NCBI GenBank assembly: GCA_050273025.1
Contig: CP158635.1
Span: forward strand, 17,236,001 to 17,300,000
Length of the DNA stretch: 64,000 nt
DNA from: Cenococcum geophilum
Taxonomy: Eukaryota
Direction: 5' to 3'
A program made the position numbers and the translations under genes. The first letter of the stretch is position 1. Every line of letters begins with the position of its first letter. This document shows positions 23,280-61,855 of this stretch, one piece after another. Below the pieces are notes generated by a model. It was given only the letters and a program-made list of their open reading frames with translations, was not told where the DNA came from and did not search any database.

Positions 23280-23699
23280 TATAACAAAGCCTTATAGTAG
23301 GAATTATGGTAGACTTATTAATAGGCTAGGTATATAAGTATTATAAGTAAGTTAACAACGTAATAATAACTGGTGGAGTAGTTGCCTAATAGATTAACTC
23401 TAATTATATTCTAAGAATTACTATAAGAAAGGAACTATCTAGGTAGGACTAAGGGTCCTTAAATACACAACCGTACTCCTATAAAATCCTTCTTATATAT
23501 AATATACGTGTTATACGTAAGGTACGTAAGTTTCTTTCGTTCCTCTTATTTAATACGTAGCACATTATATAACCTTGGTTACCATTCCTCGTTATATAGT
23601 TCTATAGGTTCCATCCTAAACCGTGCCTATATTAACCAACTAGCTTCCTCTAACTCTTCTCTAAGTAGTTATAGCATCGTACTTAAAGCGTCCGTAATA
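23280..23699 (-). repeat. 5' LTR of G2 (420 bp)
   Basis: Colinear with the G3 LTRs. Confidence 0.9.
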
Positions 23700-24266: not shown

Positions 24267-24705
24267 TATTACGGACGCTTTAAGTATAATGTTATAACTA
24301 CTTGGAGAGGAGTCGGAAGAAGCTAGTTAGTTAATTTAGGCACAGTCCAGGATAGAGCCAGTAGAGCCATGTGACGAGAAATGGTAACTAAGGTCATATG
24401 ATATAATCTGTATAATCTATAGAATCTGTGTAATCCGTAACAGAGTAGACAAAGTATACGTACCTCACGTATAAAGGGGATTTCTTAGAAGTACGGTTGT
24501 GTATTTAAAGGACCACAGTCCTTACCTAGATAGTTCTCTCCTTTATAGTAAATCTATTGGGCAACCACTCCACTAGTTATTATTACGTTGTTAACTTCTT
24601 ATTTACCTATATACCTAGCCTATTAATAAGTCCACCGTAGTTTTTACTATAAGGCTTTATTATATATTTACTACTAAGGTTATAGTATTAATAAAGTCGA
24701 ATAAT

Positions 24706-30700: not shown

Positions 30701-31100
30701 ACCACGTTAGGCTAAGACCTTTTAAAATTATATAGAGGATTTTACCGGTTATATTTAAGTTAAACCTATTAGCTAAGATAAAGATCTACCCTATATAGCA
30801 TATCGCAATACTAAAGCCAGCACACAGGAATATTAAGCTACTAGTTTACAAAGCAGACACGTATAGAGGATAAAAAGAAGACAAATAGCAAGTTTTAAAG
30901 ATTATTAGTTATAAGGACATTAACGATAAAATATAGTATAAGGTTAAGTAGATAGGCTATACTAAGACTACCTAGAAGCCACTAGAGAATTTAAAGAATG
31001 CTATAAGAAAGGTATAGGAGTATTGGAAAAGATTAGGTTAGGTAGCATTAATAAAAAAGGATTACTAAAGAATAAGTCACCTAAGGGGGACCTAAGAAGA
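24706..31100 (+). pseudogene. gag-pol of G4 (Gag-CCHC, PR, RT, RNase H, IN, chromodomain), many RIP stops; end approximate
   Basis: CINCGKQGHYARDC near 25708; ALVDSGATRNYI near 27770; YLDD near 28735; YYSRK..PELNY..KELL near 29250; chromodomain ..YEVKW.GY.ETTWEPLENL near 30875-31000. Confidence 0.9.
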
Positions 31101-31652
31101 GTAGTTACTGAACTACTTAGATTTGTTTCCTTCTCTATTAGAAGAGAATCCGTTTTTTTATTACTAAGTTCCTATAAACCTTATTCTATAAGTTTCTACT
31201 TTTTAAAACGGACCTTTTTACAAACTTTCTTAAGACGGAGTAACCGAGCGGACGCCGCAATACGGGCTTTAAGAGCCTTCTACTCTATATCCTAAGAACG
31301 TTCTAACTTAGTAAGGGCTTAAGACAGTTTACTATCTAGCTAAGCAGTAGCAGATTAAATATAAGACCCTAAGATAAATTAGTTAAGAAACTAGACAACT
31401 ATTAAGAGTAATAAGTTACGTATATTTAGTATTAGAGATAGAGCAAACGTTATAAAACAAATAAATATTCGCTTTAGTGCACTCCGCGTAAAAGAACAGT
31501 TATCGCGAAGATGGACTCGCTAACGTAATATAAACTAACCCCTTTTTTAAACAGCGAGAATATAGAGACGGTATAATCTTACTAAGAGACAATATTGTAG
31601 CAATGGTATAAGACCAACGAGCTGTAGACGAAAAAGGAGGAGCCTTTAGTAT
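31001..31652 (-). pseudogene. RIP-damaged antisense Zn2Cys6-like plus coiled-coil gene of G4; exons 31652-31424 and 31368-31001
   Basis: Same structure as in G3 and G5. Cys2 (TGT) and Cys5 (TGC) codons intact. Intron (G)TACGT...ACTAAT...TAG. Confidence 0.78.
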
Positions 31653-32181
31653 AATAAGTAAAGATGTTAACCAAATTGATTAGACGGATATTATACCTCT
31701 AGTAAACGACTTAGAGATATTTAGGATCTTTAAGGACGAAGATAAAGAGGAGGGAGATAGTGTTACGGACGCTTTAAGTACAATATTACGACTACTTAGA
31801 GAGGAGTCGGAAGAAGCTAGTTAGTTAATTTAGGTATAGTCTAAGATAGAGTCGGTAGAGCTATATAATAAGAAATAGTAACTAAGGTTATATAATATAA
31901 TCTATATAATCTGTAGGATCTATATAATCCGTAATAGAGTAGATAGAGTATACGTACCTTACGTATAAAGGGGATTTCTTAGGAGTATAGTTGTGTATTT
32001 AAAGGACCACAGTCCCTACCTAGATAGTTCTCTCCTTTGTAGTGAATCTTAGAATATAATTAAAGTTAATCTATTAGGCAACCACTCTACCAGTTATTAT
32101 TACGTTGTTAACTTCTTATTTACCTACATACCTAGCCTATTAACAAGTCCACCGTAGTTCCTACTATAAGGCTTCGTTATA

Positions 32182-35691: not shown

Positions 35692-36879
35692 ATAGGTAAG
35701 AATTAAAGTAGTTATAAAACGATATTTTAAGTTATTAAAAACTTATTTATATTTAGTAGTCTATTTAAATCTTATATTCTTCCTTATTAAGTTTACTAAT
35801 AGTTAAATAATTTTTAAGAAGTAATTAATAAATTAATAACAGAAATTTGCGAATCCTAGAAATCCTTAGATATTTTATATACTACTAGGACTTTCCTAGT
35901 TTATAATTGCAGCGATTTTCTTAGGGTCTATTTAATTCCATTATAGGATATAATTAGGCCTAAATATATAACTTTAGATGCGTGGAACTTATATTTCTTA
36001 ATATTATATTATAAGCCTATGTCTTATAGGCGTTTAAGGACTATTTAGATATACTTTTAGTACTTAGAAAGTAAAGATAAATAGATTAATATATTATTAA
36101 TATACGCAGTAATAAATATATTAAGGAATTTGCGAAGTGTATTATTAATATATTACTAAAATATACCGGGACCGTTTTTTATACTAAACGGCATTACTAG
36201 GTATTTAAAAAGTCCCTATTATATACAGAAAGCTATATACTTCTTATCTCCTTTATAAATACAGATTTAATTAAAGGCAGCGACTACGTTAAGCTTTATA
36301 AAGTATTATACTTTTACTAAGCAGTTAAGCGTTTCTTAAAGTAGAGAAATTAGATATTGGTTTTAAATTATAATTATATTTAGGGCTTAATAATTAATAT
36401 AGAACCTTAAGCCTTCTTTAGGTTTTTTAATGAATAGTATAGGTAAGGTAAATAGTAATTAACTAGGGCGAATAAATTTTTCCCTAGGTACTCTTTAAGG
36501 TATTATTATATTATAAGCAGCTCTTCTTATAATATACCGTATAACGGGCCAAACTTTAGCGTTATACTAGGTTTAAGTTTTATTTTAAAATTGTGCTTAT
36601 CTTAATACGGGGGTAGTTAGTTTATAAATTATTTCTTAAACGTATTAATTAAATCGTAATATTCTTTAGGTATAAGAGGTTAGAGGTTAATATATTGCTT
36701 TAGTTCTAATACCTTCTTAATATCTTTTAGTATTATAGTAAAGATCCTATAATCTTGTTTTCTTGCTAATAAATAAAAGGGTGCGGCTTATATTATATAA
36801 ATTTTAAGGGGTTTTAATATATTACCTTCGCGTTCTTTACCGCGATTAGTAGTTATAACTTTATTATATTGGTTTAAGG
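35692..36879 (-). pseudogene. Older Gypsy family C, fragment 3: reverse transcriptase
   Basis: De-RIP IRPS.SPFASPVLFVKKP.GGLRFCVDYRALN.ITIKNRYP, YLVMPF, AYIDDILIY. Confidence 0.87.
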
Positions 36880-38348
36880 TGTTGGTTATATAAGGGGATA
36901 TTACGTAGCTACGGTTTGTAGATAGTATAATAATTGTTCTTTTATATATTAGGGAGGGCAAGGAGCTTAAGGCTCCTCGCCACGCTACTACCGCGGCGAT
37001 ACGTGACGGCAACTTGCCGCACGTAACGGCAACTTGCCACCCGTAATGGCAATTTGCCTTATATAGTAACCACTTGCCTTTATTCCCAACACTAGCAACT
37101 CTTCTTTTATAGTTGCTATCTATATATATATATATACCGCTTAACTAGCGTAGTAAATATTAATCCTTTTTACTTACTATTGCCATTATAATATAAGTCT
37201 CGCTATCCTAAAATTTGCCTCTTAGCATATAGTACTTTCTTACTTAGGAGTTATAGGTAGATATCTTATTTAAAGGGCCACTAAGGCGCTAGTAGTAAGT
37301 AAGCCAATAGCAATTTTCTATCCCAGGGATGAAAAATCCTAATTAGCTAGGTTAAGTTAGGGTCTATAGAATATTATACTCTAAAAAGTTTTAGTAAGAG
37401 AATCTAACTAATTAGATAACTTTAACCGCTGGTTAAAGTTCCTAGATATCTTAAGACCTTATATAACTAAGAAATTTCTAGGGACTTCCTTTTAACCTAA
37501 CCTTTAACTTATATATATAAAGTATTTATATTAATAAACGTCTCTAATACCTTATTTAGGTTTGCCTTTATTATTATATCTACTAGGTTATCTTAGCTAT
37601 TAATTTATTAAATCTTAAAGAGTTTTTAACGCTTATAGGATTACTAAAGTACTATAATATTAATTATAAGGCACTTCCTTTTTATAGTATTAAGCTTAAC
37701 TAAACACTTATAGAGGGAATATAAGTTAGTGTATATAATTATAGGGATAATAGAAAGTTTAAGTTAATCTATAATTATCTTTAGGGTAGTTCTAATTATA
37801 ATTATTATATTAACTCCGCTAACTATTCTATATATCTCTAACGCTAAAACACTTTAGGTAATGCGCTTGCTCTTAATTAAGCTCTAATAAATAAGATTGC
37901 TATAGATTATAAAGTTATTCTCTTTAGTAAATTTATTTGTAATAATAATTTTATATCCTAACTAGGAGCTAAAATCTTTATTATTTATAAACAATCTATT
38001 AATAAATATAAAGAGCTTAGTAGTAGGAAGATTAATAGGTATATAAAGTAGTCCCTAATTAAAATAGTTTATTTACTAGAAAAGACGCTTATTTAGGGTA
38101 AGGATATTATCCTTAGTTAATTCCTAGTATTAGATAGCAACAGAGAGATTAAATAAAGCCTTAGGTTAATAGATAGAAGTAATATAAACTTCGCAAGCGC
38201 GTTACTCCATATATCCTTACTTTAGAGAATTAGCGTTAATAACGTTAATCTTTTTACCTTAACCCTTCTAGCGTAGAGCAATAGAATCCTTGTTTAGGGA
38301 GAGGATGCATCTATTAAAAAGTAATAGTATTATTAAACTAAGCTTTTC

Positions 38349-41300
38349 TGTTGGGAATAAAGGTAAGTGGTCACTATATGAGGTATATTGCCACTACGTA
38401 TGGCAAGTTGCCGTTACGTGCGGCAAGTTGCCGTCACGTGCCGCCGCGGCACTAGCGTAGTGAGGAACCTTAAGTTCCTTACCCCTTTCTTTAAGAATTA
38501 ATAATAAGAATAACAATTATTATACTATCTATAAACTATAGCTATATGATATCCCCTTATATAACTAATACTAATTAGTGGTTAACTTTACTATTATACT
38601 ATAGAGCAGCTAGGTATTCCACTAAGAAGAGATAAGCCACTATACTAGTGCTACTTGTGCTAAAGGAAGCTGTCTTTTAAGGTTAGAACTGGTTCTAAAC
38701 CTTAAATAGAACTCTTCCACGAATCTAAGGATTTAAAGGCTAGAACTAGTCTTAAGCCTTTCTAAGATTATAGATTCTTGCATCTATTACGCAGAATAAT
38801 ACGCTTTATAAGTCTTTGTAATTTAAGGCTAGAACTAGTTTTAAGCCTTATAATCGCAAATATATGTTACGAACGCGTACTAAATAATAAATATATATTA
38901 CAAACGCGTACTAAATAATAATCCCTACGCCAATAACACTTCCCTCCCTCTAAAAATATGGCTATGCCTACTTTAAACGACTAGGAAGACTCCTTACTAC
39001 TAGGGGTAGCTTTATACGCGAAACTTATTAATAAAAATTAGAATGAATTTACCTTTAATATAATAACTTATACCGTAAAATAAGTTAATAGCTTTCTTCT
39101 ACACTATATTATATTCTACTAAAGTAAATACTACGCTGATATATAGCTATAGGAATATTTTAGGAAGGATTTTATAGGATAGACCGCTAATACCTAGGCA
39201 CTTAGTAATATTAATATTGTTTAGGATTTTTAAGACTTTTTTTTATAGGAACGGGGTATACGTTACTAAGAATAGTAACCTAATTACTAGTAATATTTAG
39301 GCCGTTATTACTAGTATAAAAGAACTAGTATAGACAAAAGCTAAGATTATATATTAACTATAAAAACCTAGAACTAACCTATATTCTTTAAAAGGCAATT
39401 TTAATTTGGAATAAAAACCCTAAAACGCTACTCTCCTACCTAAAGGTACTCTCCTACCTAGAGGTACTCGTCCTCTACCTCCGCCACCTTTAGCTCCTCT
39501 ACTCTAGCTAACTAGTAACCCTCTACTATAAGATGTTATAAATCTAATAAAGGTATATTTGGATAAAGAGAAGAAGTTTAGAGGAGAATTATATAATATA
39601 CTTAGAGTAAAACTATAGGTCTTCTATAACTGTTGTAATAAGGTTAGAATTTAATACTACTAGTACTACTATGCTTTCTCTATTATATTAAAGGGACGGG
39701 CAGTAATATTCTATTATAACTATATTATGGGTAAAAACTATAGCTTTAATATAATGCTTTAGCTTACTAGAGCCTATTTTAAGACTAATAAGAATTACTA
39801 ACTTTATATATCTAAATGGCGAGAGATTATATTTTAGAGAGTTATTGCTTCTAACCTAATAAAGACTTATTTAAAGTGCCTTTAACTACTCTTTAATAAA
39901 CTTTAGAAAATCTAATATGGACTTACTAAAACTTACTAAAATAAGAACAGCCTAAGGGACTAGGTTATCTTAGTATACTATAGCGTTTTTAAGTATAACT
40001 TAGCGCTATATAAACCTATAAATACGTTTAAAGGAGTATATACCAAGCTACGCTCTATTATAGGTACTATAATACAAATATAAGAATCTTAATAGCTTTA
40101 TACCAAAAACCCTACCTAACTAAGTATTCCTAACTAATATAATTATAACTAGACTAATTAAATATATAGCGGCCGTAGTAGGGAATACGGTAAAGGGTAT
40201 AATTAATATTAACTATAAGGTAATTATAGAGGTCCTTATAGAGGTTTATTTTAAAGTAATTGCTAGAAGAAGTGCTATATTTATAAGAAGCTAAATTACT
40301 AGTTAACTAGATACTCCCTTAATAAGTGAAAAGAGGTATTTAATAAGTTCCGTTAAAGTATAAGAAATATTAGAAATCGCGAGGTTACTATGGCCTACTT
40401 TTAAAGCTTTCTGGTTTAATATAAAGGCGTAGAAGATCTTAAGGGTAAGGTTAATAAAACTAAATAGCTCCTTATAGATATAGAAATTAAAAACTACTCT
40501 CCTAACTAATACTTTACTAAGTATGGTAAGGTAGATAGTATATAAACTATTACTATTCTTAATAACCAATCTACGCTCCATTCTATTATAAAGTTAAATA
40601 TCTTTAATAAGCTAAAGGAGAGCTCCGCGTTCTCCTTTAATAATAGATACTTAGTAAATATCTTCTATAGTATTATACTAGATACTAGAGCCGCAGGAGT
40701 ATCTATAGTAGAAGAACCTTAAGTTTAAGCCCTTTAGCAGCTTAATAACTCTGTTTAAATTAACTATTTAACGGCAGGCTAATATATGATTTGTTTTAGT
40801 AAGGGTACTATAATCTCTCTTAGCATAATTAGGGTTTAAACCCCCTTAGGATATATTACTTTCTATATTATTCCTATAAATACTCCGTTTCTATTTTATA
40901 TTAAAGATATAAATTAATTAGGTATTAGGCTTAATAACCTTAAAAATATACTTATTTAGGGAGATAATTAGGTGCCTATTATGCGCAAGTAGGGTTACCC
41001 CTAGTTACTTCTTTATTAACTAAAAAAGAGTATTGCTTAGAGCTACTTAACTAAGTTAGAATTACGCCAACTATACTATTGTTTTAGCCACCTATCTATT
41101 TATTAATTACTTAGGGTTCTTTAGTAAGTAGGCTATAAAGTTAAGGTTAAAGCAATTAAGCATTTTATAAAGTACTACTATTACTACTAAATAAACCAGA
41201 AGTCCCCTAGCCGATTTAAGTTTACCCTTAAAAATAACTATAACTTTAACTTCTATATTATCGTTAACGTTATATATCTTAGCAGTAAGCTAGTACTTTA

Positions 41301-44300
41301 AGTTATTAACTTTTTAATTTCCTTCTAAGCCGCATAATTTTTAAAGGATATATTAGCTAGGAACGTATAGGATACCCTTTAGTTATATTAGATTAATATC
41401 TACCTAGGACCCCCTAATTAAATTATCCATAATATAGGAGAGAACTTCTTATCTATAGAGTTTTAATAATAGATAAAGGTAATAGTAATTAAGATTAAGG
41501 AAGTCCCCGTTAAGGCGTATAATAGTATTAAAAAAGTGGAGTAATATTACACGCTATTACGCCGCGTATATAAGATTATCTCTTTAGAACTAAAGGACGC
41601 TAGTAAAGAACTTACCTTGCAAATAGCTATTAAAGCTATTAATAATTCCGCTGGCCTAGATAGACTTATACCTATATTACTAGTCTTTAGCGCCTACCCT
41701 TAAATAACTAATAATTCTCTACTATCTCCCTCTATTATATAATAAGCTGAGGCTATTTATAAGGTAATAAAGGAGGTATAATGTCTCTACGTTATACGCT
41801 AGGTTAATAACGTATTAGGAATAAGAAATAGCCTAAATACCTTAACTATACTTAATCTGCCACTCTAGTCTAAAGTACGCGTATGGCGTAAAAAGGGAGG
41901 ATGGTTAGGCCTATATTAACTTATTATAATTAATAGTTAAACTTATACTATTTAAATGCCTTATAGACCTACTTAATTCCGTTTAACTATTATTAAGCCT
42001 TACTATAAAGATAATAATTCTAAGCCTTTATAGGATACCCTAGAAGATACCCTAAAAGAGAACTATAATTAATATGCTTTAGAAAACAACTACAATCCTA
42101 ATATAATTGTAGTAGATGCGCTATAACTATAACGCGGTAGAGGTCGCCTAAAGGGATTATAAAATTGCTAACATCTTATTAATTTTAAAGAATAATTTAT
42201 TGCCGCCATTAAGAATAGAGTTAAGTTATTAATGGCCTTTATAACAGCTAAAGAGAAGGCTAACTTTAAGCTCGCAAAATAGCTCTAAAAGGAAGATTAT
42301 ATTATAACCCTAGGAGTTCCTTTCTAAGTATTTAATAAGCAGGAGATCGACGGTCTTATTATAAGAGGAGTCTTTAAATTTAAGAAGTATAACCCTACTA
42401 AGTTTAATAAAGTTCGTATCTTTAAGTTAAGAATAGTTAACGAGATTAAAGGTAAAGCTACTAATACCCTATTTAAGAAATTAAGGCTTGTTATCTAAGG
42501 TTATAACGATAATAGTAAGGAGGTAATTCTTACGCAATCTCCTACGATTTAATAAGCTAGTTAGTAAATTATTATTACGCTAGCTCCCTCCTTAATAAAG
42601 AATAAAATAGCGGTTTATTTATAAGATATTACTTAAGCCTACACCTAATTAGAGACGTACCTTTAGCGCTTAATATTAGCATACCTTCTAGAGCAAATTT
42701 ACTACTAGTATCCTAAAGATACAATTATAGTTGTGCTTAAGCCATTATATAGAATTATAGAGGTAGGAACTTACTAGTAGGCTACCTATAGCAAGCACTA
42801 TAAAGAGAAACTTTTAATAACTACTTCTATATTTAATCCCTGCTTCCTTATTATAACCACAGGAACTCTATTTAGAATTATTGGCATATAAACTAACGAT
42901 ATAATTATCTTAGGGGACGACTAATTCTTAGCTCTTAAAGAAGATAAGCTAGTAAAGGCAAATCTTATAGTAAAGCTAAAAGAAAAGCTTAATTTAATAA
43001 CACTATTACTCTTTAATAGATGCATCCTTTCCCTAAATAAGGATTCTATTGCTTTACGCTAGAAGGGTTAAGGTAAGAAGATTAACGTTATTAACGTTAA
43101 TTTCCTAAAGCAAGGATATATGGAGCAACGCACTTACGAAGTTTATATTACTTCTATCTATTAACCTAAGGCTTTATTTAATCTCTCTGTTACTGCCTAA
43201 CACTAGAAACTAACTAAGGATAACGTTTTTGCCCTAAATAAATGTCTTTCTTAGTAAATAAACTATCTTAATCGGGGACTACTCTACGTGCTTATTAATC
43301 TTCCTACTACTAAGCTCTTTATATTTATTAATAGATCGTTTATAAATAATAAAGATTTTAGCTCCTAGTTAGGATATAAGATTATTATCGCGAACGAATT
43401 TACTAAAGAGAATAACTTTATAATCTATAGTAATCTTATTTATTAAAGCTTAACTAAGAGCAAGCGCGTTACCTAAAGTGTTTTAGCGTTAGAGATATAT
43501 AAAATAGTTAGCGGAGTTAATATAGTAATTGCAATTAAAACTACCCTAAAGATAATTATAGATTAACTTAAACTTCCTATTATCCCTATAATTGTATACA
43601 CTAACTTATATTCCCTCTATAAGTGTTTAGTTAAGCTTAGTACTATAAAGAAAAAGCGCCTTATAATTAATATTATAGCACTTTAACAATCCTATAAGCG
43701 TTAAAAACTCTTTAAGATTTAATAAATTAATGGCTAAGATAATCTAGTAGATATAATAATAAAGGCAAACCTAAATAAGGTACTAGAGATGTTTATTAAT
43801 ACAAATACTCTATATATATAAGTTAAAGGTTAGGTTAAAAGGAAGTCCCTAGAAATTTCTTAGTTACGTAAGGTCTTAAAATATCTAGGAACTTTAACCG
43901 GCGGTTAAAGTTATCTAATTAGTTAGATTCTCTTACTAAGACTTTTTAGAGTATAATATTTTATAGACCCTAACTTAATCTAGCCAATTAGGATTTTCTA
44001 TCCCTGGGATAGAAAATCGCTATTAGCTTACTTACTACTAGCGCCTTAGTGGCCCTCTAAATATAATATCTACCTATAACTCCTAAGTAAGAAAGCACTA
44101 TATGCTAAGAGGCAAATTTTAGGATAGCGAGACTTATATTATAATAGTAATAGTAAGTAAGAAGGATTAATATTTATTACGCTAGTCAAGCGGTATATAT
44201 ATATAGATAGTAACTATAAAAGAAGAGTTGCTAGTATTAGGAATAAAGGCAAGTGGTTACTATATAAGGTATATTGCCACCATATATAGCAAGTTGCCGT

Positions 44301-44456
44301 TACATGCGGCAAGTTGCCGTCACGTGCCGCCGCGGCACTAGCGTGGTAAGGAACCTTAAGTTCCTTACCCCTTTCTTTAAGAATTAATAATAAGAACAAT
44401 AATTATTATACTATCTACGAACCGTAGCTACGTGATATTCCCTTATGTAACCAACA
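38349..44456 (+). mobile_element. Full-length Ty1/Copia (GalEa-like) element C2
   Basis: 222-bp LTRs 38349-38570 and 44235-44456; TSD TTTTC (38344-38348 / 44457-44461); purine tract before the 3' LTR. Confidence 0.96.
38958..43863 (+). pseudogene. Copia gag-pol of C2 (order PR-IN-RT-RNase H), RIP-inactivated; boundaries approximate
   Basis: DTGAAG (40681), RQLHRRFGHP, VEAHNSIGKVERYH, KSRLVIQGY, RDITQAY, GMQTDD, FVDGSFANN, TDSYSLYE..KLGT.KEKRL.ID, NPAD.MTK (de-RIP). Confidence 0.88.
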
Positions 44457-45152
44457 TTTTCCTTTAGCTTTACTATAAGATTTGCCTTTACTAGCTTGTC
44501 TTCTTTAAGAGCTAAGAATTGGTTGTCTCCTAAAATAATTATATTATTAGTTTATATACTAATAATTCTAAATAAAGTTCCTATAGTTGTAATAAGGAAG
44601 CAGGGATTAAATATAGAAGTAGTTATTAAAAGCTTCTTTTTATGGTGCTTGCTGTAGGTAGCCTACTAGTAAATTCCTACCTCTATAATCCTATATAATG
44701 GCTTAAGCACAACTATAATTATATCTTTAGGATACTAATAGCGAATTTACTCTAAAAGGTATGCTAATATTAAGCGCTAAAGGTGCGTCTTTAATTAGGT
44801 ATAGGCTTAAGTAATATCTTATAAATAAACCGCCATTTTATTCTTTATTAAGGAGGAAGCTAGCGCAATAATAACTCGCTAACTAGCTTGTTAAATTATA
44901 GGAGACTATATAAAAATTACCTCCTTACTATTATTATTATAGCCTTAAATAATAAGCCTTAATTTCTTAAATAGGGCGTTAGTAGCTTTGCCCTTAATCT
45001 TATTAACTATTCTTAACTTAAAGATGCGAACTCTATTAAACTTAATAGGGTCATACTTCTTAAATTTAAAGACTTCTCTTATAATAAGACTATTGATCTC
45101 CTACTTATTGGATACTTAAAAAGGAGCTCCTAAAGTTATAATATAACCTTCC

Positions 45153-45598
45153 TGTAACGTAGCCCGCCTCTACGTCGCCATACGGCCAAAAAGACTGAGA
45201 GTGCTTGCGAACTTATCGTAAGCGCGGCGGGACCTAATATATATACTCTTACAATTGCCCTTTTCTCTGCGCGCTCGTTCCCGAGCGCTCGCAAAAATTC
45301 CTCTATACGCCCGTTTGGGCCTCTATAGGGATTAAATGCCAAGAGTATTACTATATTAGTTAGTCCCTAGTAATATAAGCAATCGGAATCTCCACTAACG
45401 CCTTATCGTATAAATGCGCGTTAGACTGTACTAGAGCGAAGTGACTAATAGGGATCGAACCCACAACACCTGGCCCCAGTAAGTTCGCAAGCACAATTAT
45501 AACGTGGCCTGCCTCCACGTCACTATACGGCCAAAAAGACTAAGAGTGCTTGCGAACTTATTGTAAGCGTGGCGGGACCTAATATATATACTCTTACA
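45153..45598 (-). mobile_element. TRIM (terminal-repeat retrotransposon in miniature), 446 bp
   Basis: Two 101-bp LTRs (45153-45253, 45498-45598; TG...CA); TSD CTTCC on both sides, single GGAAG at the empty site in C2 (42291-42295); PPT AGAGAAAAGGG on - next to the left LTR; 244-bp internal region. Confidence 0.93.
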
Positions 45599-48500
45599 CT
45601 TCCTTTTAGAGCTATTTTGTAAGTTTGAAGTTAGCCTTCTCCTTTGCTGTTATAAAGGCTATTAATAACTTAACTCTATTCTTAATAGCGGTAATAAATT
45701 GTTCTTTAAAATTAATAAGATATTAGCAATTTTATAATCCCTTTAAATAACCTCTGCCGCGTTATAGTTATAGCATATCTACTATAATTATATTAGAATT
45801 ATAGTCGCCTTTTAGAGCATATTAATTATAGTTCTCTTTTAGGGTATCTTTTAGGGCATCCTATAAAGGCTTAGAATTATTATCTTTATAATAAGGCTTA
45901 ATAACAGTTAAATGGAATTAAGTAGGTCTGTAAGGCATCTAAATAGTATAAGTTTAACTATTAATTATAATAAGTTAGTATAAGCCTAACTATCCTCCCT
46001 TTTTACGCTATACGCGTACCTTAAACTAGAGTGGCAGATTAAGTATAGTTAAGGTATTTAGGCTATTTCTTATTCCTAGTATATTATTAACCTAGTATAT
46101 AGCATAGAGACGTCACATCTCCTTTATTACCTTGTAAATAGCCTTAGCTTATTATATAATAGAGGGAGATAGTAAAGAATTATTAGTTATTTAAGGGTAG
46201 GCGCTAAAGACTAGCAATATAGGTATAAGTCTATCTAGGCCAGCGGAATTATTAATAGCTTTAATAGCTATTTATAAGGTAAGTTTTTTACTAGCGTCCT
46301 TTAATTTTAAAGAGATAATCTTATATACGCGGCGTAATAGCGCGTAATATCGTTTTACTTTTTTAATACTATTATATGCCTTAATAGGGACTTCCTTAAC
46401 CTTAATTACTATTACCTTTATTTATTATTAAAACTCTATAGATAAGAAGTTCTTTTTTATATTATAGATAATTTAATTAGGGGGTCCTAAATAGATATTA
46501 ATCTAGTATAATTAAAGGGTCTCCTATACGTTTCTGGCTAATATATCTTTTAAGAAACGCGCGGCTTAAAAGGAGGTTAAGAAGTTAATAACTTAGAGTA
46601 CTAGCTTACCGCTAAGATATATAATATTAACAATAATATAAAAGTTAAAGTTATAGTTATTCTTAAGGGTAAACTTAAATCGGCTAGGGGACTTCTAGTT
46701 TATTTAGTAGTAATAGCAATACTTTATAAGATGCTTAATTACCTTAACCTTAACTTTATAGCCTACTTACTAAAGAACTTTAAGTAATTAATAAATAGAT
46801 AGGTGGCTAAAATAATAGTGTAGTTGGCGTAATTCTAACTTAGTTAAGTAGTTTTAAGTAATACTCTTTTTTAGTTAATAAAGAAGTAACTAGGGGTAAC
46901 CCTACTTACGCATAATAGGTACCTAATTATCTCCCTAAATAAGTATATTCTTAAGGTTGTTAAGCCTAATACTTAACTTATCTATATCTTTAATATAAAA
47001 TAGAAATAGAGTATTTATAGAAATAATATAAAAACTAATATACCCTAAGGGGGTTTAAACCCTAATTATACCGAGAGAGATTATAGTACCTTTACTAAAA
47101 TAAATTGTATACTAGCCTACCGTTAAATAGTTAATCTAAATAAAGCTATTAAGCTACTAAAGGGCTTAAACTTAAGGTTCTTTTACTATAGATATTCCTA
47201 TGGCTTTAGTATCTGGTATAATACTATAGAAGACATTCGCTAAGTATTTATTATTAAAGGAAAATATAGAGCTCTCCTTTAGCTTATTAAAGATATCTAA
47301 CTTTATAATAGAATAGAGCGTAAATTGGTTATTAAGGATAGCAACGGTTTATATACTATTTACCTTACTATACTTAGTAAAGTATTAGTTAGGTAAGTAG
47401 TTCTTAATTTCTATATCTATAAGGAGCTATTTAGTCTTATTAACCTTACCCTTAAGGTCTTCTACGCCTTTATATTAAACTAGAAAGCTTTAGAAGTAGG
47501 TTATAGTAACCTTATAATTTTTAACATTTCTTATACTTTAACAGAACTTATTATATGCCTCTTTTTACTTATTAAGGGAGTATTTAGTTAACTAGTAATT
47601 TGGCTTCTTATAAATGTAGTATTTCTTCTAGTAATTACTTTAAAATAAACCTCTATAAGGACCTCTATAATTACCTTATAGTTAATATTAATTATACCCT
47701 CTTCTATATTCCCTACTACGGCCACTATATATTTAATTAGTCTAGTTATAATTATATTAGTTAGGAATACTTAGTTAGGTAGGGTTTTTGGTATAAAACT
47801 ATTAAGATTCTTATATTTATATTATAGTACCTATAGTAGAGCGTAGCTTAGTATATACTTTTTTAAATATATTTATAGGTTTATATAGCGCTAAGTTATA
47901 CTTAGAAACGTTATAGCATACTAAAATAACCTAGTCCCTTAGGCTGTTCTTATTTTAGTAAGTTTTAGTAAAGCTATATTAGATTTTCTAGAGTTTATTA
48001 AAGAGTAGTTAAAGGCACTCTAAATAAGTCTTTATTAGGTTAGAAGTAATAACTCTCTAGAATATAGTCTCCCCCCATTTAGATATATAAAGTTAGCAAT
48101 TCTTATTAGTCTTAAAGTAGGCTTTAGTAAGCTAAAGTATTACATTAAAGTTATAGTTTTTACCTGTAATATAGTTATAATAGAATATTACCGCCTATCC
48201 CTTTAATATAACAGAGAAAGCGTAATAATACTAGTAGCGTTAAATTCTAACCTTATTATAACAGTTATAAAAAACCTATAGTTTTACTCTAAGTATATTA
48301 TATAGTTCTTTTTTAAACTTCTTCTCTTTATTTAAATATACCTTTATTAGATTTATAACTTCTTATAGTAAAGGCTTACCGGTTAGCTAGAGTAGAGGAG
48401 GTAAAGGCGGAGTAACTCTAAGTAGGAGAGTACCTTTAGGTAGGAGAGCAGCTCTAGGTAGGGGGTTAGTATTCTAGGGGTTTTAATACGAATTAAAGTT

Positions 48501-49571
48501 GCCTTTTAAAGAATATAGGTTATTTTTAGGTTTCTATAGTTAATATATAATCTTAGCTTCCGTCTATATTAGTTCTTCTATACTAGTAATAACGGCCTAA
48601 ATATTGCTAGCAATTAGGTTACCGTTTTTAGTAATATATACCTTATTCCTATAGAGAAAGTCTTAAAAGTCCTAAACAATATTAACGTTACTAAGTACCT
48701 AGGTATTAGCAGTCTATCCTATAAAATCCTCCCTAAAATACTTATATAGTTATAAGTCGGCGTAATATCTATTTTAGTAGAATATAATATAGTATAGGAG
48801 AAAGCTATTAACTTATTTTATGGTATAAGTTATTATATTAAAGGTGAATTTATCCCAATCTTTATTAATAAGTTTTGCGTACTTAGCTACCCCTAGTAGT
48901 AAAGAGTCTTTCTAGTTATTTAAGGTAGGCGTAGCCATGTTTTTAAAGAGAGGGAAGTATTATTAGTGTAGGGATTGTCGTTTAGTACGCGTTCGTAATA
49001 TATATTTATTGTTTAGTACGCGTTTATTATTTAATACGCGTTTATTATTTAGTACGCGTTTATTATTTAGTACGCGTTCGTGACGTATATTTGCGGTTAT
49101 AGGGCTTAGGACCAGTTCTAGCCTTAAATCGCGAAGACTTATAAAGCGTATTGTTCTACGTAATAGACGCAAGAATCCGTAATCTTAGAAAGGCTTAGGA
49201 CTAGTTCTAGCCTTTAAATCCTTAAATTTATAGAAGAATTCTATTTAAGGTTTAGAACCAGTTCTAACCTTAAAAGACAGCTTTCTCTAGCACGAGTAGC
49301 ACTGGTATAGTAGCTTGTCTCTTCTTGGTGGAATACCTAGCTATTCTATAGTATAACAGTAAAGTTAACTACTAATTAGTGTTGGTTACACAAGGGGATA
49401 TCACGTAGCTACGGTTCGTAGATAGTATAATAATTATTCTTTTATATGTTAGGGAGGGCAAGGGGCTTAAGGCTCCTCGCTACGCTACTGCCGCGGCGAT
49501 ACGTAACGGCAACTTGCCACCCGTAATAGCAATTTGCCTTATATAGTGACCACTTGCCTTTATTCCTAACA

Positions 49572-51819: not shown

Positions 51820-52610
51820 AGAGGACCGTCGCCAAAACCAGACGACCGTCGCCAGAACCAGACGACCGTTATAAGAACTAGACGACAACCTTTCGAACAA
51901 CCAGCTAGCGAAGACCACGAACAATTCAATTGATCGATTAATCGAATTTAATATTGGCCTATTACCGAATCGTATCAAGGCCTCCTAGGGAGGCACCCTA
52001 GATAACTACCGTTCGAATGTACAGCTAGCGAACGGCCATAGAGAACGACCTGGATTAATTAGAGCCTTCGATCAGGCCGACCTCTCCCCTAAATTAAATT
52101 AGATACTGACATAGGCAGGCAGGCAGGTAGGTAGGTAGGTAGGTAGGTAGGTAGGTAGGTAGGTAGGTAGGTAGGTAGGTAGGTAGGTAGGTAGGTAGGT
52201 AGGTAAGTAGGTAGGTAGATAGGCAGGTAGGCAGGCAAGTAGGAGAGGACCGTTGTCAGAACCAGACAATAATCGTTCGAACGACTAGCCAGCGAACACC
52301 ACGATCGATTCGATCGATCGATCGAATCGAACTAGAGCCTTAATATCAGCCTATTACCGAATTAAATCAAATCAAGGCCTCCTAGGGAGGCACCCCAGAT
52401 GACCACCGTTTAAACGTACAGCCAATGAACGCCCATGGAGAACGATTCGAATCAATACAATTAATCGCAATCGAATTAAGCAGAGCCTTCGATCGGGCCG
52501 ACCTCTCCCCCGAATTACAGATATAGACAGGTAGGCATAGACAGGTAGGCACGACAGGCACAGGCAGGCATAGATAGGTAGGATAGGCAGATAGGCAGGT
52601 AGGCAGGCAC
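51820..52610. repeat. Diverged tandem duplication (~425-bp unit), each unit ending in an AGGC/AGGT-rich tract
   Basis: AGAGGACCGT..AACCAGAC, GCCTATTACCGAAT, ATCAAGGCCTCCTAGGGAGGCACC and AGAGCCTTCGATC.GGCCGACCTCTCCCC each occur twice in the same order. Confidence 0.8.
52113..52238. repeat. (AGGT)n/(AGGC)n microsatellite
   Basis: Directly visible tetranucleotide run. Confidence 0.95.
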
Positions 52611-53883: not shown

Positions 53884-56800
53884 TGTTACGGACGCTTTAA
53901 GTACGATGTTACGACTACTTGGAGAAGAGACGGAAGAAGCTAGTTGGTTGATTTAGGTATGGTCTAGGATAGAGCCGATAAAACCATATAATGAGGAATG
54001 GTAATTAGGTCACGTGATATAATCTATATAATCTGTGTAATCTATATAATCTATAATAGAGTAGATAGAGCAGATAGAGCAGATAAAGCAATGACTTTCT
54101 TAAGAGTACGGATGTGTATTTAAAGGACCATAGTCCCTACCTAGATAGTTCCTTTCCTTGTAGTAATTCTCAGAATATAATTAGAGTTAATCTGTTAGGC
54201 AACCACTCCACCAGTTATTATTATATTATTAACTTTTATACTTGCATTTCTTATACACCTAGCCCAATAATAAGCCTATTGTAGTTCTTGCTACAAGGTT
54301 CCGTTATACAATTACTACCTAGTTACGATATTAATATAAGAAGTTAAACAACATGCTACCAAAAGCAGCCACTATAATGCCATCGACGGCAGCAACTACT
54401 TTAGGGACAGGAGGTAATACTAGTATAGCAGATACTGACTTATAGCAACCTGTAACGGTCGGACAGCTATAGGAAATAGTTAACTAGCTAACAGCTAATA
54501 ATATAGTATTAGAAGAAAGACTTAACGGGATAGGAGCAGCAAAGATTAAGCTATTATTAATTAAGAGATTTATAGAAAAGAGGTTAAAGCTTAAAGGATT
54601 CCTTATGTAGATATACTTTAAGGTCTTATAAGAGGGAGTGAAGTTACTTATACCTATGGATCGGATAGCCTACGCAGGACTATTCTTATTAGGAAAAGCA
54701 CTTAAGTGGTTTAAACTTTACCTTACGGAGATACAGGTAAACGGAATAACGACTACTAACCAAAATATGCGATTTATGTTCTTAAGTTAGGAAGAATTCG
54801 TAGAATGACTTACGCAGATGTTTAGAGACCCGGAAAAAACAACTATAGCGGAAAGAAAACTCTAGAACCTTATATAATAAACTTTAGTAATTAAGTATAC
54901 AATATAGTTCTAGACACTAGTAATATAAGTAAAGTAGAATAATAGGGCGCTTATGGCATAGTATAAACAGGGACTTAAGGTTAAAGTCTAGGATGTAATT
55001 ATCCTAATAAAAGATGCGGATACCCTAAGGGAACTAATAGATTAGGTAATTAAGATTAATAATTGGATTTACTAAAGGGAACAGGCTAAGAGAGGCTAGG
55101 ATAAAGTTCTATAGTTATATAAGGCGCAGAGTACGTAACGATAAAAGCTAAGTTAGAAATTATAGTATAGCGTAGAGCTAATAGACCTAAGTAGCACTAA
55201 AGAAACCTATAAGAAATAGAGTAAACTATAGAAACCTAGAGGATAAGGATTAAGTAATTAAAGGTCTAAGGAGCAGAGGCTGAATTAGGGATCTTAATAG
55301 TAGAAGATATTTAGGCGGACTCTATAGCAAGAGAAATGGTTTAAAGAAGGAGCTTATATAAATTGCGGAAAATAAGGTTATTATATTAGAGACTATAAAA
55401 GTAAGTAGAGTTACTACGTAGTAAAAGGCATGAGATTAGTAGACGATATATACGTATAAAGGGACGATAATATACTGCGAGGAATAAAAGAATGTTTAAT
55501 TAGAAGTTTTACGTTTTGTTATAATAATATATACCGAATTTATAAGGACGCTAAGTATAGCGCAAGCTATTAGCTATAAGAGCTAGCACCTATAGGATAT
55601 AGAGGAACTAATAAACTAGTTCGCAGATTGGATATTAAGGACGATAAATTTAACCTAGGCGAAATATTCCGTAATAATAAGGTAATAAGGGCCGCTTACT
55701 AGGAGCGAGTAGACCTCGGAGATATTATACTAGAGGTAGAGGATAATTCTACTATAAAATAGGGAATATTAGTAGGGATTGAAACCCTACTAGATATAAT
55801 GTCTATTGCTTTGCGAGATATAAGAGAAGTAGGACAGCGAACTATTTCGGCACTTAATAAAGGTAAAAGGCTAAAGGCTTAAGATTCTTATAGCAAGATA
55901 AGAGATAACTAAGATTCTTAAAACGAGATAAGGCAAGCTTAAGGACCTATAATAGATAATAACCAATAGAGCAGAGTAGTAGCTTAGTTTAAAAATATAT
56001 AAATAAGCTCGGGACGGAAGTTCCTATAGGTATAAGATTCTTAAGACGAGATAAGTAAGATTTAAGACTCTTAAGACGAGATAAGAACACTAAGTAAGCT
56101 TAGTTAGACTAAGGCTGAAGCTAAGCTTAAGTTAGAAGTAAGCTCGGGATTAAAGAACCTAAGGGGTTAAGAATTTGGGGTATAAATTAGGACACCTATA
56201 GATAAGAGGTAAGAAGCTTCTTTATAGATTAGAGAATCTACGGTATAAATAGTAATTAGACTAGGAGATGAATATATAGACTTAGAGGATTTACTAGTTA
56301 AATAAAGTGTTCGGACTAAAGATTAAAAAGTTAATACTAGGATTAAAAAGTAAGACGACTTTAAGGATTAGAGCGTAAGGCGTAAACTAAAAGAAACTAT
56401 AGAAGAGTTTAGGTAAAGAATTATCGCATAGTAAGAATAGAAACTAGATAAGAGATCTAGTATATTAGGACGTATAAAGGATAGAGTACTAGTATAAAGA
56501 ATTACTAATAGACTAAAAGCAGGTATACTAAGAGCTAAGTAGCTTACTAAACTAAAAGATAAAGAGGATTTAGGGATTCTAATTAGGTTTAAGGAACAAT
56601 ATACTAAAGGCTATTACGACGTAGTAATAAGAAGATACTTCCTTACGGATAGACCGTATATACTCTAGTAGCTATACCAAAAGTAGTATAGATAAAGGCA
56701 CAATAATAAGTGGGAAGATTTCTATATATAGTTAGATAAAAAAGTTATCTAAGACCACCCGATTATAGAGAAGGCCATAACGTATATTAAAGAAGCCTTA

Positions 56801-59800
56801 ATTATAACATTAAAGGATCTAAAGGAACGTTTAGAGGACTAGAGAAGTAAGAGATATATCTTAGTACCTATAAATAAAGTCGCAATATTTAGATTAGTAC
56901 AATAAAGGTTTAAACTTAGGGATAAAGATAAGCTAAGAGTTAACCTAAAGCACCTAGTATACTATACGTTATTATAAATTGCGTATATAGACGATATATA
57001 CAAAATGTATAAGAATCTGAAGGAAAAAAATCGGAAATACCCTATAAGGATATACTAGATAACGGATGAGTAATAGTATAAGAATGCTAAATATATATAT
57101 AGATAGCATCCAGCAGAGGTCCAAGAGGAAGGAAGTTTAGTACTTTAACCAGGAAGATTCCTTATAGAAGAATGCTTAGATAGATAATAGTGGTAGGAAT
57201 GCCCAGAGAACACGTATTTATGGTATATTAAAGATAAAAAGCGAACTAGGTATTAGCTAAAGAGTAAGCCAAATATACTAGGATTAAGCAGCTAATAGTT
57301 AGGAAAAGTAGAGGCCTATAGGACTAGAGGGAGCCAGTAATAGAGCCTTAGACCCTTAAAGGAATTTAAGGATAACACCTAAATTTATAAATTAATTAGT
57401 AAGATTAGCAGTTTAAAGCGCTAATAAATAGTAGAGCAACGCGAAACTATATTTTACTAGTAGCAGTTAAAAGAATGGGACTACCTTATAGACAAAAGAA
57501 GTAACTTTACCTATTAGTTATAATTTTAGGAGATCCAATAACCTATAGAGGAGGGATTATTAATCTTAAAACAGGACCTATTTAGATAACTATCAAAGGA
57601 AGATAAATTAAGATGTCTTTTAATATTCTACCATTAGGACGGAACAAGGTAGTATTAGGTATGCCTTAGTTATAGAAATATAATCTAAGGATCAATTAGA
57701 TTACAGGTTAGGTTAATATTAAAGATACTTAACGCTATAAGATATAATAATAAGCCAAGTTAGTATGGTACTAAGTAGGAGCAACCTATAAAGAAATAGA
57801 AAAAGGACTAAGTTATATACTAAAGAGATACCATAAGTATGGCAAGAAACTATAGTCACTAAAAAATAAAAAGCTATTAAAATATATAGCATGGGACTAT
57901 AAGATAGAATTAGAACTAGGGACAAGTCTAAAGTTCTTTCCAATCTATAAGCTTACCAAAGAAGAAGGTAGAGTATTAAAAGAGTTTATCTAAGAGAACT
58001 TATAAAAAGGATATATTAGACCATTATAGTTATTAGCAGGATATCCAATACTATTTATACTAAAGAAAAATAGCAAACTAAGGCTGTGTATTAACTATAG
58101 ACAGTTAAACAGCATTACTAGAAAGAATAGGTATCCTTTACCCTTAATTAGCGAAATCTAAGATAGGATAGGCAATACGCAAATCTTTATAAAGATAGAT
58201 CTAAGATAGGCGTACCATTAGATTAGGATTAAGAAGGGCAATAAATAAAAGGCAGCCTTTAGGTTAAAGAAAGGACTATATAAACTATTAGTTATATAAT
58301 TTGGATTTATAAATATACTAGTAATATTCCAGAAGCGTATTAACAATGTATTAGGAGAACACTTGGATGAATTTGTTATAGTATATCTTAACGATATTAT
58401 TATCTACTTAATAACCAAGAAAGAACACAGAGAATATGTTAAATGGGTTTTAAAAAGACTATAAGAAGAATAGATGCTAGTAGTAATTAAGAAATGCGAG
58501 TTCTTTACCAGGAAGACCGATTTTATTAGATTTATTATTAAACTAGGCTAACTTAGTATAGATCTAAAGAAGATCGAGGCTATAGTAAATTGGTAGGAAC
58601 TAAAGAACGTTATATAGTTAAAATCATTCCTAGGGTTTTGCAATTACTATAGAAGGTTTATAGCGCAGTGGTTAAAGAATATTAAGCCATTTACGAGGTT
58701 AATAAAGAAAGAAGAACTATAGGCATGGGGAGAGGAGCAAAGAGAACTCTTTAAGAAAGTCAAAGAGTTGTTTACTTAGGGGCTAGTTCTTAAGATCTAT
58801 TAACTAGGACTAGAGACGGTTATAAAGACGGATGCATTAGACTATACACTAGGGGCATACTTTATATAAAGGTATTAAGATAGATGGCACCTAGTGGCAT
58901 ACTATAGTCGAAAGATAACACCACTAAAATTAAACTATAACATCTATAATAAGGAGTTATTAGGTATAGTTATAGCATTAAAGAAATAGAGAGCATTCTT
59001 ATAAGGCATAGAGAAACCATTTATAGTTAAAACGGATTATAAGAACCTAACAGGATTCCTAATAATAAAGGAACTTAACTAAAGACAAGTTAAATAGGCA
59101 GAGATGCTTACAGAATACTATTTTAAGATTTAGTATACTAAAGGTACAGATAATACGCGGGCAGATACTCTAAGCTGTAAAGCTAAACTATAAAATAAGA
59201 AAAAGCTATCGGGGGCTTTATTATAAAAAGATATAGACGGATTAATTAGATATAATTATCCAAAAATTATAGTAACTTAAGAAGATAATAAACTAAAGAA
59301 AGTCTACAAGATACCGGAAAGCTTTTAGGCATAAAGAATTCTAGAAGTATAGCTAGAAGATCCACAAATAGATATATACAAAAATCGAGAAGCGAAGTAT
59401 ATCCTAAGAAGCATAGCAGAACAGTTTATAGAAGACTTCTATAAGGGACTAACTTAAGGATATAATAGAGCTATGGGCTTAGTGTTAAGACTCCAGGAGA
59501 AGTACATTATTGACAGAATCTAAAGGATAGCTAGAAAAGTTATAAAGAAATATTTAGATTACTAAAGGAACAAACTAATAAGGTATAAGCCATATAGAGG
59601 GCTACAACCTATTAAAACACTAGAAAGACCATAGGAGGTTATATTATAGAACTTTATTATTAAGTTACTAAAATTAAGAGATCCTATTACCGGATAAAAT
59701 TATAACGTAATCTTAGTAATAATAAATAAGCTTACAAAGTAGGGATACTTTATAGCCTATACGGAAGAAATATCAGTAGAAGATATCGCTAGAATCTATA

Positions 59801-61855
59801 TTAAAGAAGTGTTTATAAAACATAGAGCACTAAATAAAATCATATTAAATAGAAATCTAAGATTTATAGCAGTATTCTAGGAAGTATTCTTAGTAGAGTA
59901 AGGAGTTTAAGCAGCAACTTCCACCGCATACTATCCGCAGACAGACAGTTAAACGGAAAGATTAAATTAGACGCTAGAGCAGTATCTAAGGCATTATATT
60001 AATCACGTATAGAATAATTAGGTATTACTATTACTAGTTATATAGTTTACATACAATACAACACCTTAAAAAGGAATAGGCACATTACTATTTAAGGCAA
60101 ATTATGGATATAAGCTAAGAACATCGTTATTACCACGGCAAGTAAAGAAAACGAGTAGTACAGCTAAAGAAAGAATAAAGACATTAATAAATCTTTATAT
60201 AAACCTTATAGAATCAGCAAAGAAAGTATAAAAAAGAATAAAAAAGTACTATAATACTAAGAGATCTAAGGGACTAGATCTTAAGGAGGGAGATAAAGTA
60301 TAGCTACTATATAAAAATTTTAAGAGTTAACAACTAAGCAAGAAGTTAAACTATATCAAACTAGGACCTTTTAAAATTATATAAAAGATTTCACTAGTCA
60401 CATTTAAGTTAAACCTACTAGCTAAAATAAAGATTTACCCTATATAGCATATCGCAATACTAAAGCCAGCACATAGGAATATTAAGCCACCGGTCTATAA
60501 AGCAGACACATATAGAGGATAAGAAGAAGACAAATAGTAAGTATTAAAGATTGTTAATTATAAGGACATTAACAACAAAATATAGTATGAGGTTAAGTGG
60601 ATAGGCTACACTAAAACTACCTAAGAGCTACTAGAGAATTTAAAAAATGCTATAGAAAAGGTATAGGAGTATTAGAAGAGATCAGGTTAGGCAGCATTAA
60701 TAAAAAAGGATCACCAAAGAATAAGTTACCTAAGGGGGACCCAAGAAGAGCAGTTGCCGAACTACTTAGATCTATTTCCTTCTCTATTAAAGGAGAGTCC
60801 ATTCTTTCATCGCCTAGTTTCTATAAACCTTATTCCACAAGTTTCCACTCCTTAGAACGCACCTTCTCGCGCACCTTCTTAAGACGGATTAACCAAGCGG
60901 AAGTAGCCAAACGAGAGTCTAGAGTACGTTATTAAGCATTAGCGGCCTCTCTCTTAGCATCCTAAAAACGATAAAGTTTAGCTAGAGCGACTAACAGCTC
61001 GTTATCTAGCCGCGTAGCAGCAGATTAAATATAAGACCCTAAGACAAATTAATTAGGGAACTAGAAGACTATTAAGAGTTATAGGACGCGCATACTTAGC
61101 GTTAGAAGTAGAGCGAATATCACAGGACAATCGCATATTTACTTTAGTGCACTCTAAATAAGAGGATAGTTATTAAGATAAAGGACTCGCCAGCGTAATA
61201 CAGACCAACCCCTCTTTTAAATAACGAGAACATAGAGACGGTATAATTTCACCAAGAGATAGTATTATAGCAATAGTACGAGACTAATAAACTGTAGAAG
61301 AGGATAAAGGAGCTTTAGGCATTATAAGTAACAATATTAACTAAATTAATTAGACGGACATCACACCTCTAGTAAACAACTTAGAGATATTAGGAATCTT
61401 CAAGGACGAAGATAAAGAGGAGGGAGATAGTGTTATGGACGCTTTAAGTACAATATTATAACTACTTAGAGAAGAAACAAAAGAAGCTAGTTGGTTAATT
61501 TAGGTACGGTTTAGGATGGAGCCGATAGAACCATATAATAAGGAATAGTAATTAGGTTATATAATATAATTTATATAATCTATATAATCTATATAATCTA
61601 TAATAGAGTAGATAAAGCAGACAGAGTAGATAGAGTAATGACTTTCTTAGGAGTACGGATGTGTATTTAAAGGACCACAGTCCCTACCTAGATAGTTCCT
61701 TTCCTTGTAGTGATTCTCAGAATATAATTAGAGTTAATCTATTAGGCAACCACTCCACCAGTTATTATTACGTTGTTGACTTTTATACTTGCATTTCCTA
61801 TACACCTAGCCTAATAACAAGCCTATTGTAGTTCTTGCTACAAGGTTCTGTTATA
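53884..61855 (+). mobile_element. Full-length Ty3/Gypsy chromovirus copy G5
   Basis: 425-bp LTRs 53884-54308 and 61431-61855; TSD TAAAA (53879-53883 / 61856-61860); gag ATG at 54353; PPT at 61416-61430. Confidence 0.96.
60650..61322 (-). pseudogene. RIP-damaged antisense Zn2Cys6-like plus coiled-coil gene of G5; exons 61322-61094 and 61038-60650 (205 aa reconstructed)
   Basis: ATG intact; Cys1, 3, 5 and 6 codons intact; exon 2 has a 21-nt in-frame insertion relative to G3 and G4. Confidence 0.8.

Follow-up and report, generated by a model that had tools for sequence, protein, structure and literature searches.

Much of the window, a 64,000-nucleotide stretch of Cenococcum geophilum DNA, is filled by copies of an element of approximately 8 kb with LTRs of about 425 nt. 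The G+C content of the window is 27-42%, only two stop-to-stop frames of at least 120 amino acids are present, and repeat copies differ from one another overwhelmingly by C>T and G>A, a pattern that fits repeat-induced point mutation in a fungus. A further repeat, termed here the host repeat, occurs twice (36880-42986 and 42978-49571) in an inverted and circularly permuted arrangement with 88-91% identity, and its portion from 38572 to 42986 matches no Pfam family in six frames. Inside the host repeat, some 1.7 kb (36879-38571) is flanked by inverted repeats of about 210 nt, which are 81.6% alike and hold tandem motifs of the GGCAACTTGCC type; in all probability this segment is a DNA transposon of the non-autonomous kind. 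At 51860-52607, where the window is richest in G+C, two direct repeats 324-364 nt long and 71% alike, with their starts 384 nt apart, lie beside an open frame of 132 amino acids. The present analysis concerns a 446-bp LTR element on the minus strand, within the second copy of the host repeat. Table 1 presents its features along with those of its surroundings.

Table 1. Coordinates, within the window, of the 446-bp element, its empty site and the neighboring 8-kb element.
Feature	Position	Strand	Remarks
Target-site duplication GGAAG	45603-45599 (upstream) and 45152-45148 (downstream)	-	5 bp, both copies perfect
5' LTR	45598-45498	-	101 nt; TG...TA; final ATA here, ACA in most copies (C>T)
Presumed TATA box TATATATA	45590-45583	-	LTR bases 9-16, in U3; putative promoter function
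U3 arm of LTR palindrome	45568-45561	-	GCTTGCGA in intact copies, GCTTACAA in the window copy
Presumed self-primer TAAGTTCGCAAGCAC	45560-45546	-	LTR bases 39-53; core TCGCAAGCAC at 45555-45546
U5 stem-loop ACGTGG-AGGCAGG-CCACGT	45520-45502	-	Immediately upstream of the PBS
Spacer ATT	45497-45495	-	Between 5' LTR and PBS
PBS GTGCTTGCGAACTTA	45494-45480	-	Starts 3 nt past the 5' LTR; 15-nt perfect complement of own LTR
Hairpin region past the PBS	45479-45448	-	Holds T-arm/B-box-like GGTTCGATCCC at 45461-45451
Hairpin GCGCTCG-GGAA-CGAGCGC	45288-45271	-	Directly before the polypurine tract
Polypurine tract	45270-45254	-	GCAGAGAAAAGGGCAAT here; GCAGAGGAGAGGGCAAT in most copies
3' LTR	45253-45153	-	101 nt; TG...CA
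Empty site	42291-42295	+	Single GGAAG, no element; inverted paralogous copy of the host repeat
8-kb element copies	53884-61858, 24269-32181, 1-4612, 7535-13504, 17700-23700

The two LTRs enclose an internal domain of 244 nt and differ from each other at nine positions, all of them transitions. No stop-to-stop frame of at least 120 amino acids lies in the element region of the window. An initial annotation of this DNA had described the 15-nt complement between the PBS and the LTR, three bases past the 5' LTR, together with a polypurine tract, a target-site duplication, an empty site and an absence of gag and pol; every coordinate it gave is exact and each of these features is borne out by the sequence. 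The same annotation had placed the complementary LTR segment about 20 nt downstream of the TATATATA box, a distance that measures 23 nt from the end of the box to the start of the presumed self-primer. The box is TATATATA in the main family of copies described below and CATATATA in four diverged ones. Judging from its spacing to the box, the self-primer is presumed to be the 5' end of the element RNA. Its sequence is present again in the 3' LTR (45215-45201), and the U3 arm of the LTR palindrome, which is identical to the first bases of the PBS, is able to pair with it.

Searches for a relationship with tRNA were negative. A TGG start, as expected of a PBS for a tRNA 3' end, is absent from the first 20 nt past the LTR. 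ARAGORN identifies no tRNA in the window or in the 31 metagenome loci that carry the element, and Rfam returns no tRNA match, its two matches being at chance level and to unrelated families. The GGTTCGATCCC motif past the PBS is a perfect match to the consensus of the tRNA T-arm and polymerase III B-box; a tRNA origin for it was nevertheless rejected given the ARAGORN and Rfam results and the loss of the motif from the diverged copies L014, L021 and L023. The hairpin before the polypurine tract has the arms GCGCTCG/CGAGCGC in the main family and GCGTTCG/CGAACGC in L007, L014 and L021, one pair having changed on both sides; in L023, the left arm is further altered to GCGTTTG.

The host repeat is very abundant in the DNA sequencing runs X1 and X6. 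Contigs of the DNA runs that omit the element join 45142 or 45147 to 45599, and loose ends run from flank to flank. These two observations establish that the element is missing from most copies of the host repeat. Since its insertion, the window copy, along with the host repeat around it, has accumulated a great many C>T and G>A changes that resemble repeat-induced point mutation.

The complement between the LTR and the PBS stands well apart from what shuffled sequence yields. Between the LTR and the 25 nt that follow it, the longest complement is 15 nt, compared with a maximum of 13 nt (reached once) and a usual length of 5-6 nt among 5000 dinucleotide-preserving shuffles of the LTR, of which none reach 15 nt. 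A chance origin of the 15-nt complement is excluded. On the plus strand of the window, a 15-mer with a perfect reverse complement no more than 150 nt upstream occurs at one other place only, 22929-22932, where the match is the terminal inverted repeat of a short insert. A match to the 15-mer with three mismatches at 38186-38200 was judged to be chance. The short insert itself (22786-22943) is 158 bp long, carries perfect 15-nt terminal inverted repeats (CCCTTGCATAGATGG and CCATCTATGCAAGGG), interrupts a copy of the 8-kb element and appears by eye richer in G+C than its surroundings; it looks like a MITE.

Only one copy of the element is found in the window, the remainder of which shows it nothing beyond short AT-rich similarity matches, with no helper seen. 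Additional copies were recovered from metagenomes with a scan pattern made of the ATT spacer, the PBS and the next six bases, so that the PBS is fixed in the recovered loci. The scan gave 31 loci on 31 contigs from two metagenomes, and each of them aligns to the element up to the point where its DNA runs out; at none of them does the DNA continue into a coding element or a helper. The ATT spacer is invariant at 31 of 31 metagenome loci, as the search pattern, which included ATT, dictates. A PBS-free pattern consisting of the LTR only had no match in either viral_contigs or genome_contigs.

Eighteen of the metagenome loci and the window copy make up a set of 19 complete copies, which measure 421-470 bp and have LTRs of 101-102 nt. 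Perfect 5-bp duplications, all at different sites, flank 16 of the 19; in one other copy the duplication has a single-transition mismatch and in two the flanks are unmatched. The LTR pairs of the complete copies differ at 0-10 of 101 positions, with two pairs being identical. The family has therefore transposed as a miniature, in some cases recently, and from its identical LTR pairs it looks recently active. One locus, L008, has lost the polypurine tract and has in its place (oriented positions approximately 920-945) a second copy of the 12 bases found just before the 5' LTR; the LTRs are identical nonetheless and GATAT stands at both ends, so that the insertion may be rearranged or in tandem.

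Parts of the 446-bp stretch are present in 20 of the 24 sequencing runs listed. For the DNA runs X1 and X6 and the RNA runs X5 and X21, contigs or reads were mapped to the element plus flanking sequence. Over this combined region, X1 contributes 2531 contigs and X6 contributes 659, under two organism labels. Many of these contigs are 10-15% different from the window copy, and at one internal position the same alternative letter is shared by up to 23 of them. Most of the variable positions show A or T in the window copy but G or C as the prevailing letter of the contigs, which identifies the window copy as a mutated member of the family.

To what extent the primer and the PBS remain paired across the family can be judged from 27 sequences that include a 5' LTR (26 loci and the window). 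LTR bases 40-53 form standard pairs with the PBS in 98% of the cells of this comparison (14 pairs by 27 sequences). The 10-bp core TCGCAAGCAC/GTGCTTGCGA is paired in 26 of the 27, the exception being L006, a heavily mutated copy. The initial annotation had made its reading depend on the complementarity being conserved among copies, and conserved it is, over 14 bp in most and over the core in nearly all. LTR base 39 is C in most copies and T in the window copy; the usual duplex is therefore 14 bp long, and the fifteenth pair of the window copy results from a C>T change. In L014 and L021, both LTRs read ATATCGCAAGCAC and only the 10-bp core can pair. Since these two copies have perfect duplications and LTR pairs just 1-2 differences apart, 10 bp would seem to have sufficed for their transposition, and the point at which their complementarity stops suggests a primer about 10 nt long.

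Changes on both sides of the primer/PBS helix occur at none of its 14 pairs, in a set where the PBS side is fixed by the scan pattern. The DNA-run and RNA mapping leaves the PBS unfixed, and among the 40 best-supported differences listed there, 45484 is the only one in the PBS interior. The variant at 45484 accounts for 462 of 56625 depth units in X1, is absent in X6 and is carried by 10 of 16 reads in the RNA run X21. Among the differences listed for X21, no compensating LTR change accompanies it, which leaves the 10-bp core and a mismatch. With an LTR of the L014 type, the variant would pair to give 11 bp. By analogy with other LTR elements, which restore the PBS from their primer, a self-primed element would be expected to renew its PBS in every cycle from the beginning of its own RNA, so that the two would stay matched along the primer.

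Predicted RNA structures agree with this pairing. When RNA from LTR base 40 to just past the PBS is folded, the minimum-energy structures of the window copy and four others all close the 5' end on the PBS, with z-scores of -4.2 to -5.4 and with none of 200 shuffles as stable. Inside the resulting loop, beside the PBS, is the U5 stem (ACGTGG/CCACGT in most copies), one pair of which is GC in 12 distinct rows, GU in five, UA in three and AU in one. The covariation score of this stem exceeds those of all 500 shuffles and all slid controls. In the Tf1 'pretzel' (bioRxiv 10.1101/2022.12.06.519325), the primer/PBS duplex is joined by two duplexes between PBS-adjacent and downstream LTR sequence, and the predicted U5 stem matches one of these two accessory duplexes. 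A possible third duplex, CUCAGU (after the primer) with ACUGGG (after the PBS), is paired in 93.9% of cells in the main family; it breaks in diverged copies, and its 3' side is fixed by the search pattern.

Element sequence is also present in RNA libraries. In the metatranscriptome X5, depth extends over 45141-45558 and is zero on both flanks. In the DNA runs, depth on the flank repeat exceeds that on the element many times over, and the uncovered flanks make DNA carry-over from the same organism an unlikely source of the X5 signal. Contigs of X5 are identical to the window copy over 79 and 117 nt. The end of X5 coverage near 45558 was considered as a transcript start and rejected, for contigs from the LTR are placed on the better-fitting 3' LTR. 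In the raw RNA of X21, 59 reads among approximately 9.3 million records cover the LTR and PBS of a diverged subfamily and, assuming the usual stranded library, run mostly in the direction of the sense RNA.

Turning to the 8-kb neighbor, one copy read through its stops matches the Pfam families RVT_1, RT_RNaseH, RT_RNaseH_2 and SH3_Tf2-1, and a Chromo match falls below threshold (E 0.099, 13 bits against a cut-off of 25.1). The neighbor is a degraded Ty3/gypsy element, possibly a chromovirus. It has a 9-nt self-complement in which GTAGTAATT, an LTR sequence about 50 nt past a TATTTAAA box, is matched by AATTACTAC where the LTR ends. The copy at 24269-32181 has TAGTAAAT/ATTTACTA instead, a compensatory A/T swap on both sides that sets two subfamilies apart. 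Judged by this complement, the 8-kb element probably self-primes too. It shares with the 446-bp element an ATT that follows the LTR, an end of the form CGTTA..CA and a purine tract rich in GAGGAG, whereas the primer pairs of the two are unrelated, their PBSs are placed differently and comparison of the sequences finds no internal similarity.

No helper with matching LTR, PBS or internal sequence, including the autonomous partner with matching LTR ends that the initial annotation envisaged, was found in the window or at the 31 loci. That annotation had taken the element for a miniature parasite of the self-priming chromoviruses around it. The data support its picture of a multi-copy, miniature, self-primed element. 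Dependence on the surrounding chromoviruses is conjectural; the 9-nt complement of the neighbor differs and the LTR ends are only loosely similar.

Taken as a whole, the element represents a non-autonomous, non-coding LTR family of TRIM structure that most likely employs Tf1-type self-priming, a reading in which considerable, if not complete, confidence can be placed. RNA polymerase II would start some 25-35 nt past the U3 TATA box, near LTR bases 40-44, and the first 10-14 nt of the RNA would fold back onto the PBS 3 nt past the 5' LTR. The foldback is predicted to close a U5 loop of about 50 nt that contains the conserved stem-loop. By analogy with Tf1, the RNase H of a helper reverse transcriptase would then cleave the RNA where the duplex ends, exposing a 3' OH from which minus-strand strong-stop DNA would be primed. 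The polypurine tract would prime the plus strand and a helper integrase would insert the cDNA, generating the 5-bp duplications that are observed. Gag, protease, reverse transcriptase and integrase would all be supplied in trans, probably by a Ty3/gypsy helper of the Tf1/sushi type.

A bolder extension of this mechanism, offered tentatively and thought rather unlikely, regards the family as a natural minimal substrate for self-priming. In this proposal, a leader of about 83 nt would be sufficient, the reverse transcriptase and RNase H of the helper would read shape alone, and the U3 copy of the PBS would be a decoy. The PBS-like U3 copy would form a hairpin with the 3' copy of the primer, and the U3-less 5' end of the RNA would stay free for the PBS. 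Recognition by shape alone is suggested by the lack of sequence relationship between the primer/PBS pair and that of the co-resident Ty3/gypsy element.

Other accounts of the same sequence have a lower standing than self-priming. The LTR segment could be kept for its palindrome, as a binding site for a dimeric factor or a hairpin at the U3/R border, with the PBS merely resembling the left arm and some other primer in use. The palindrome, GCTTGCGA-loop-TCGCAAGC, is found over 8-9 bp in the LTR of all subfamilies with the self-primer as its right arm, at its ninth pair L007 has A-T where L014 and L021 have T-A, and the latter two copies have an LTR changed beside the core and a PBS without the matching change. 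Yet the complement sits exactly where a PBS belongs, 3 nt past the LTR, and there is no other candidate PBS in a family that has transposed many times. As a covarying hairpin, the palindrome was set aside because its pairing is not above controls, 105 of 500 shuffles being equally paired. A role for the palindrome also supplies no primer and is compatible with self-priming; as a matter of speculation, pairing within it might keep the primer copy at the 3' end of the RNA covered. As a replacement for self-priming, the palindrome account is improbable.

Priming by a host RNA, either an internal tRNA fragment or another small RNA, would make the LTR match incidental. Internal tRNA fragments prime copia and Ty5. 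The PBS complement, however, presumably resembles neither a T loop nor an anticodon loop, and no TGG is available for a tRNA 3' end. A fungal precedent exists in the Helenus TRIMs, which prime from the anticodon-loop region of a tRNA (PMC10886601). Even with this precedent, a host primer would turn a 14-15-nt match to the element's own LTR, some 23 nt past a TATA box, into a coincidence that no shuffle in 5000 reproduced, and the account is very improbable. Were the window the sole source of data, its single copy might pass for a one-off internal deletion of a full-length retrotransposon or for an assembly artefact. The initial annotation had named a one-off deletion product as the outcome that would overturn its reading. 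This origin, to which practically no credence is given, is refuted by the 31 loci on as many contigs, all of them the same element, by the 19 complete copies of 421-470 bp, 16 of which have distinct duplications of their own, and by the many contigs across the four mapped runs that carry the element.

If self-priming is indeed the mechanism, the closest functional parallel is Tf1. Self-priming is established for Tf1 and has been proposed for Tf2, Tj1, Maggy, Skippy, CfT-1, Boty, Grasshopper, Afut1 and Tcn1 (PMC7175516, PMC4600332, PMC6934838, PMC6317226). The Tf1/sushi group includes Tf1 and Tf2 of Schizosaccharomyces pombe, Tj1, Tosmo1-3 and Tcry1 (PMC7175516, PMC4600332, PMC6934838, bioRxiv 10.1101/2022.12.06.519325). 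As in these elements, the PBS just past the 5' LTR of the 446-bp element is complementary to sequence within the LTR, downstream of a TATA box. The resemblance to Tf1 extends to the length of the duplex, which is 10-14 bp here and 11 nt in Tf1 (PMC7175516), to the U5 stem-loop beside the PBS and to LTRs that end in CA.

Several differences set the element apart. Members of the Tf1/sushi group encode a Ty3/gypsy polyprotein with a chromodomain integrase, whereas this element encodes nothing, lacks gag and pol, totals just 446 bp and has an LTR no longer than 101 nt. Its candidate for the third 'pretzel' duplex breaks in diverged copies, and the self-primer doubles as an arm of the LTR palindrome. 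For this element, the start of the RNA and its cleavage by RNase H are predictions. It is accordingly filed as an element that would work like the Tf1/sushi group and not as a member of that group.

By structure, the element is a TRIM. It is shorter than 1 kb, its terminal repeats of 101 nt lie within the range of about 100-250 bp typical of TRIMs, and its interior, bounded by a PBS and a polypurine tract, is non-coding. Like TRIMs, it has a 5-bp duplication and many copies, and it would be mobilized in trans; mobilization as such is demonstrated by the 16 of 19 complete copies with perfect and different duplications. Fungal TRIMs have been catalogued (PMC8549362). The difference lies in the primer: the PBS of a textbook TRIM is described in PMC6934838 as complementary to a tRNA, while the PBS here is complementary to the element's own LTR. 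The statement in the initial annotation that TRIMs are mostly tRNA-primed agrees with this source and with PMC10886601.

PMC10886601 describes Helenus as fungal TRIMs with 5-bp duplications and priming from a tRNA anticodon loop. The 446-bp element resembles Helenus in being a fungal TRIM with 5-bp duplications and unconventional priming, and it also has a tRNA-like motif. Helenus, Ajax and Cassandra have LTR parts derived from small RNAs (PMC10886601), whereas the T-arm-like motif of this element is internal and not in the LTR. In further contrast to these three, its LTR has a TATA box and not a polymerase III promoter, and its PBS matches the LTR and not a tRNA.

Full-text searches of the literature, with subscription journals and supplements outside their scope, found no description of a self-primed TRIM. 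Such an element is a modest variant that a known mechanism would lead one to expect, and it does not amount to a new one. Its existence has a bearing on how these elements are catalogued, for TRIM detection that requires a tRNA-complementary primer site would overlook or misclassify TRIMs that prime themselves, and such TRIMs may be common where fungal genomes are large and full of repeats. With cis signals only in its 446 bp, it offers a compact natural definition of what self-priming needs, namely a 10-nt core duplex and a U5 stem-loop along with a 3-nt spacer, and a small reporter for the activity of its helper's reverse transcriptase and RNase H could be made from it.
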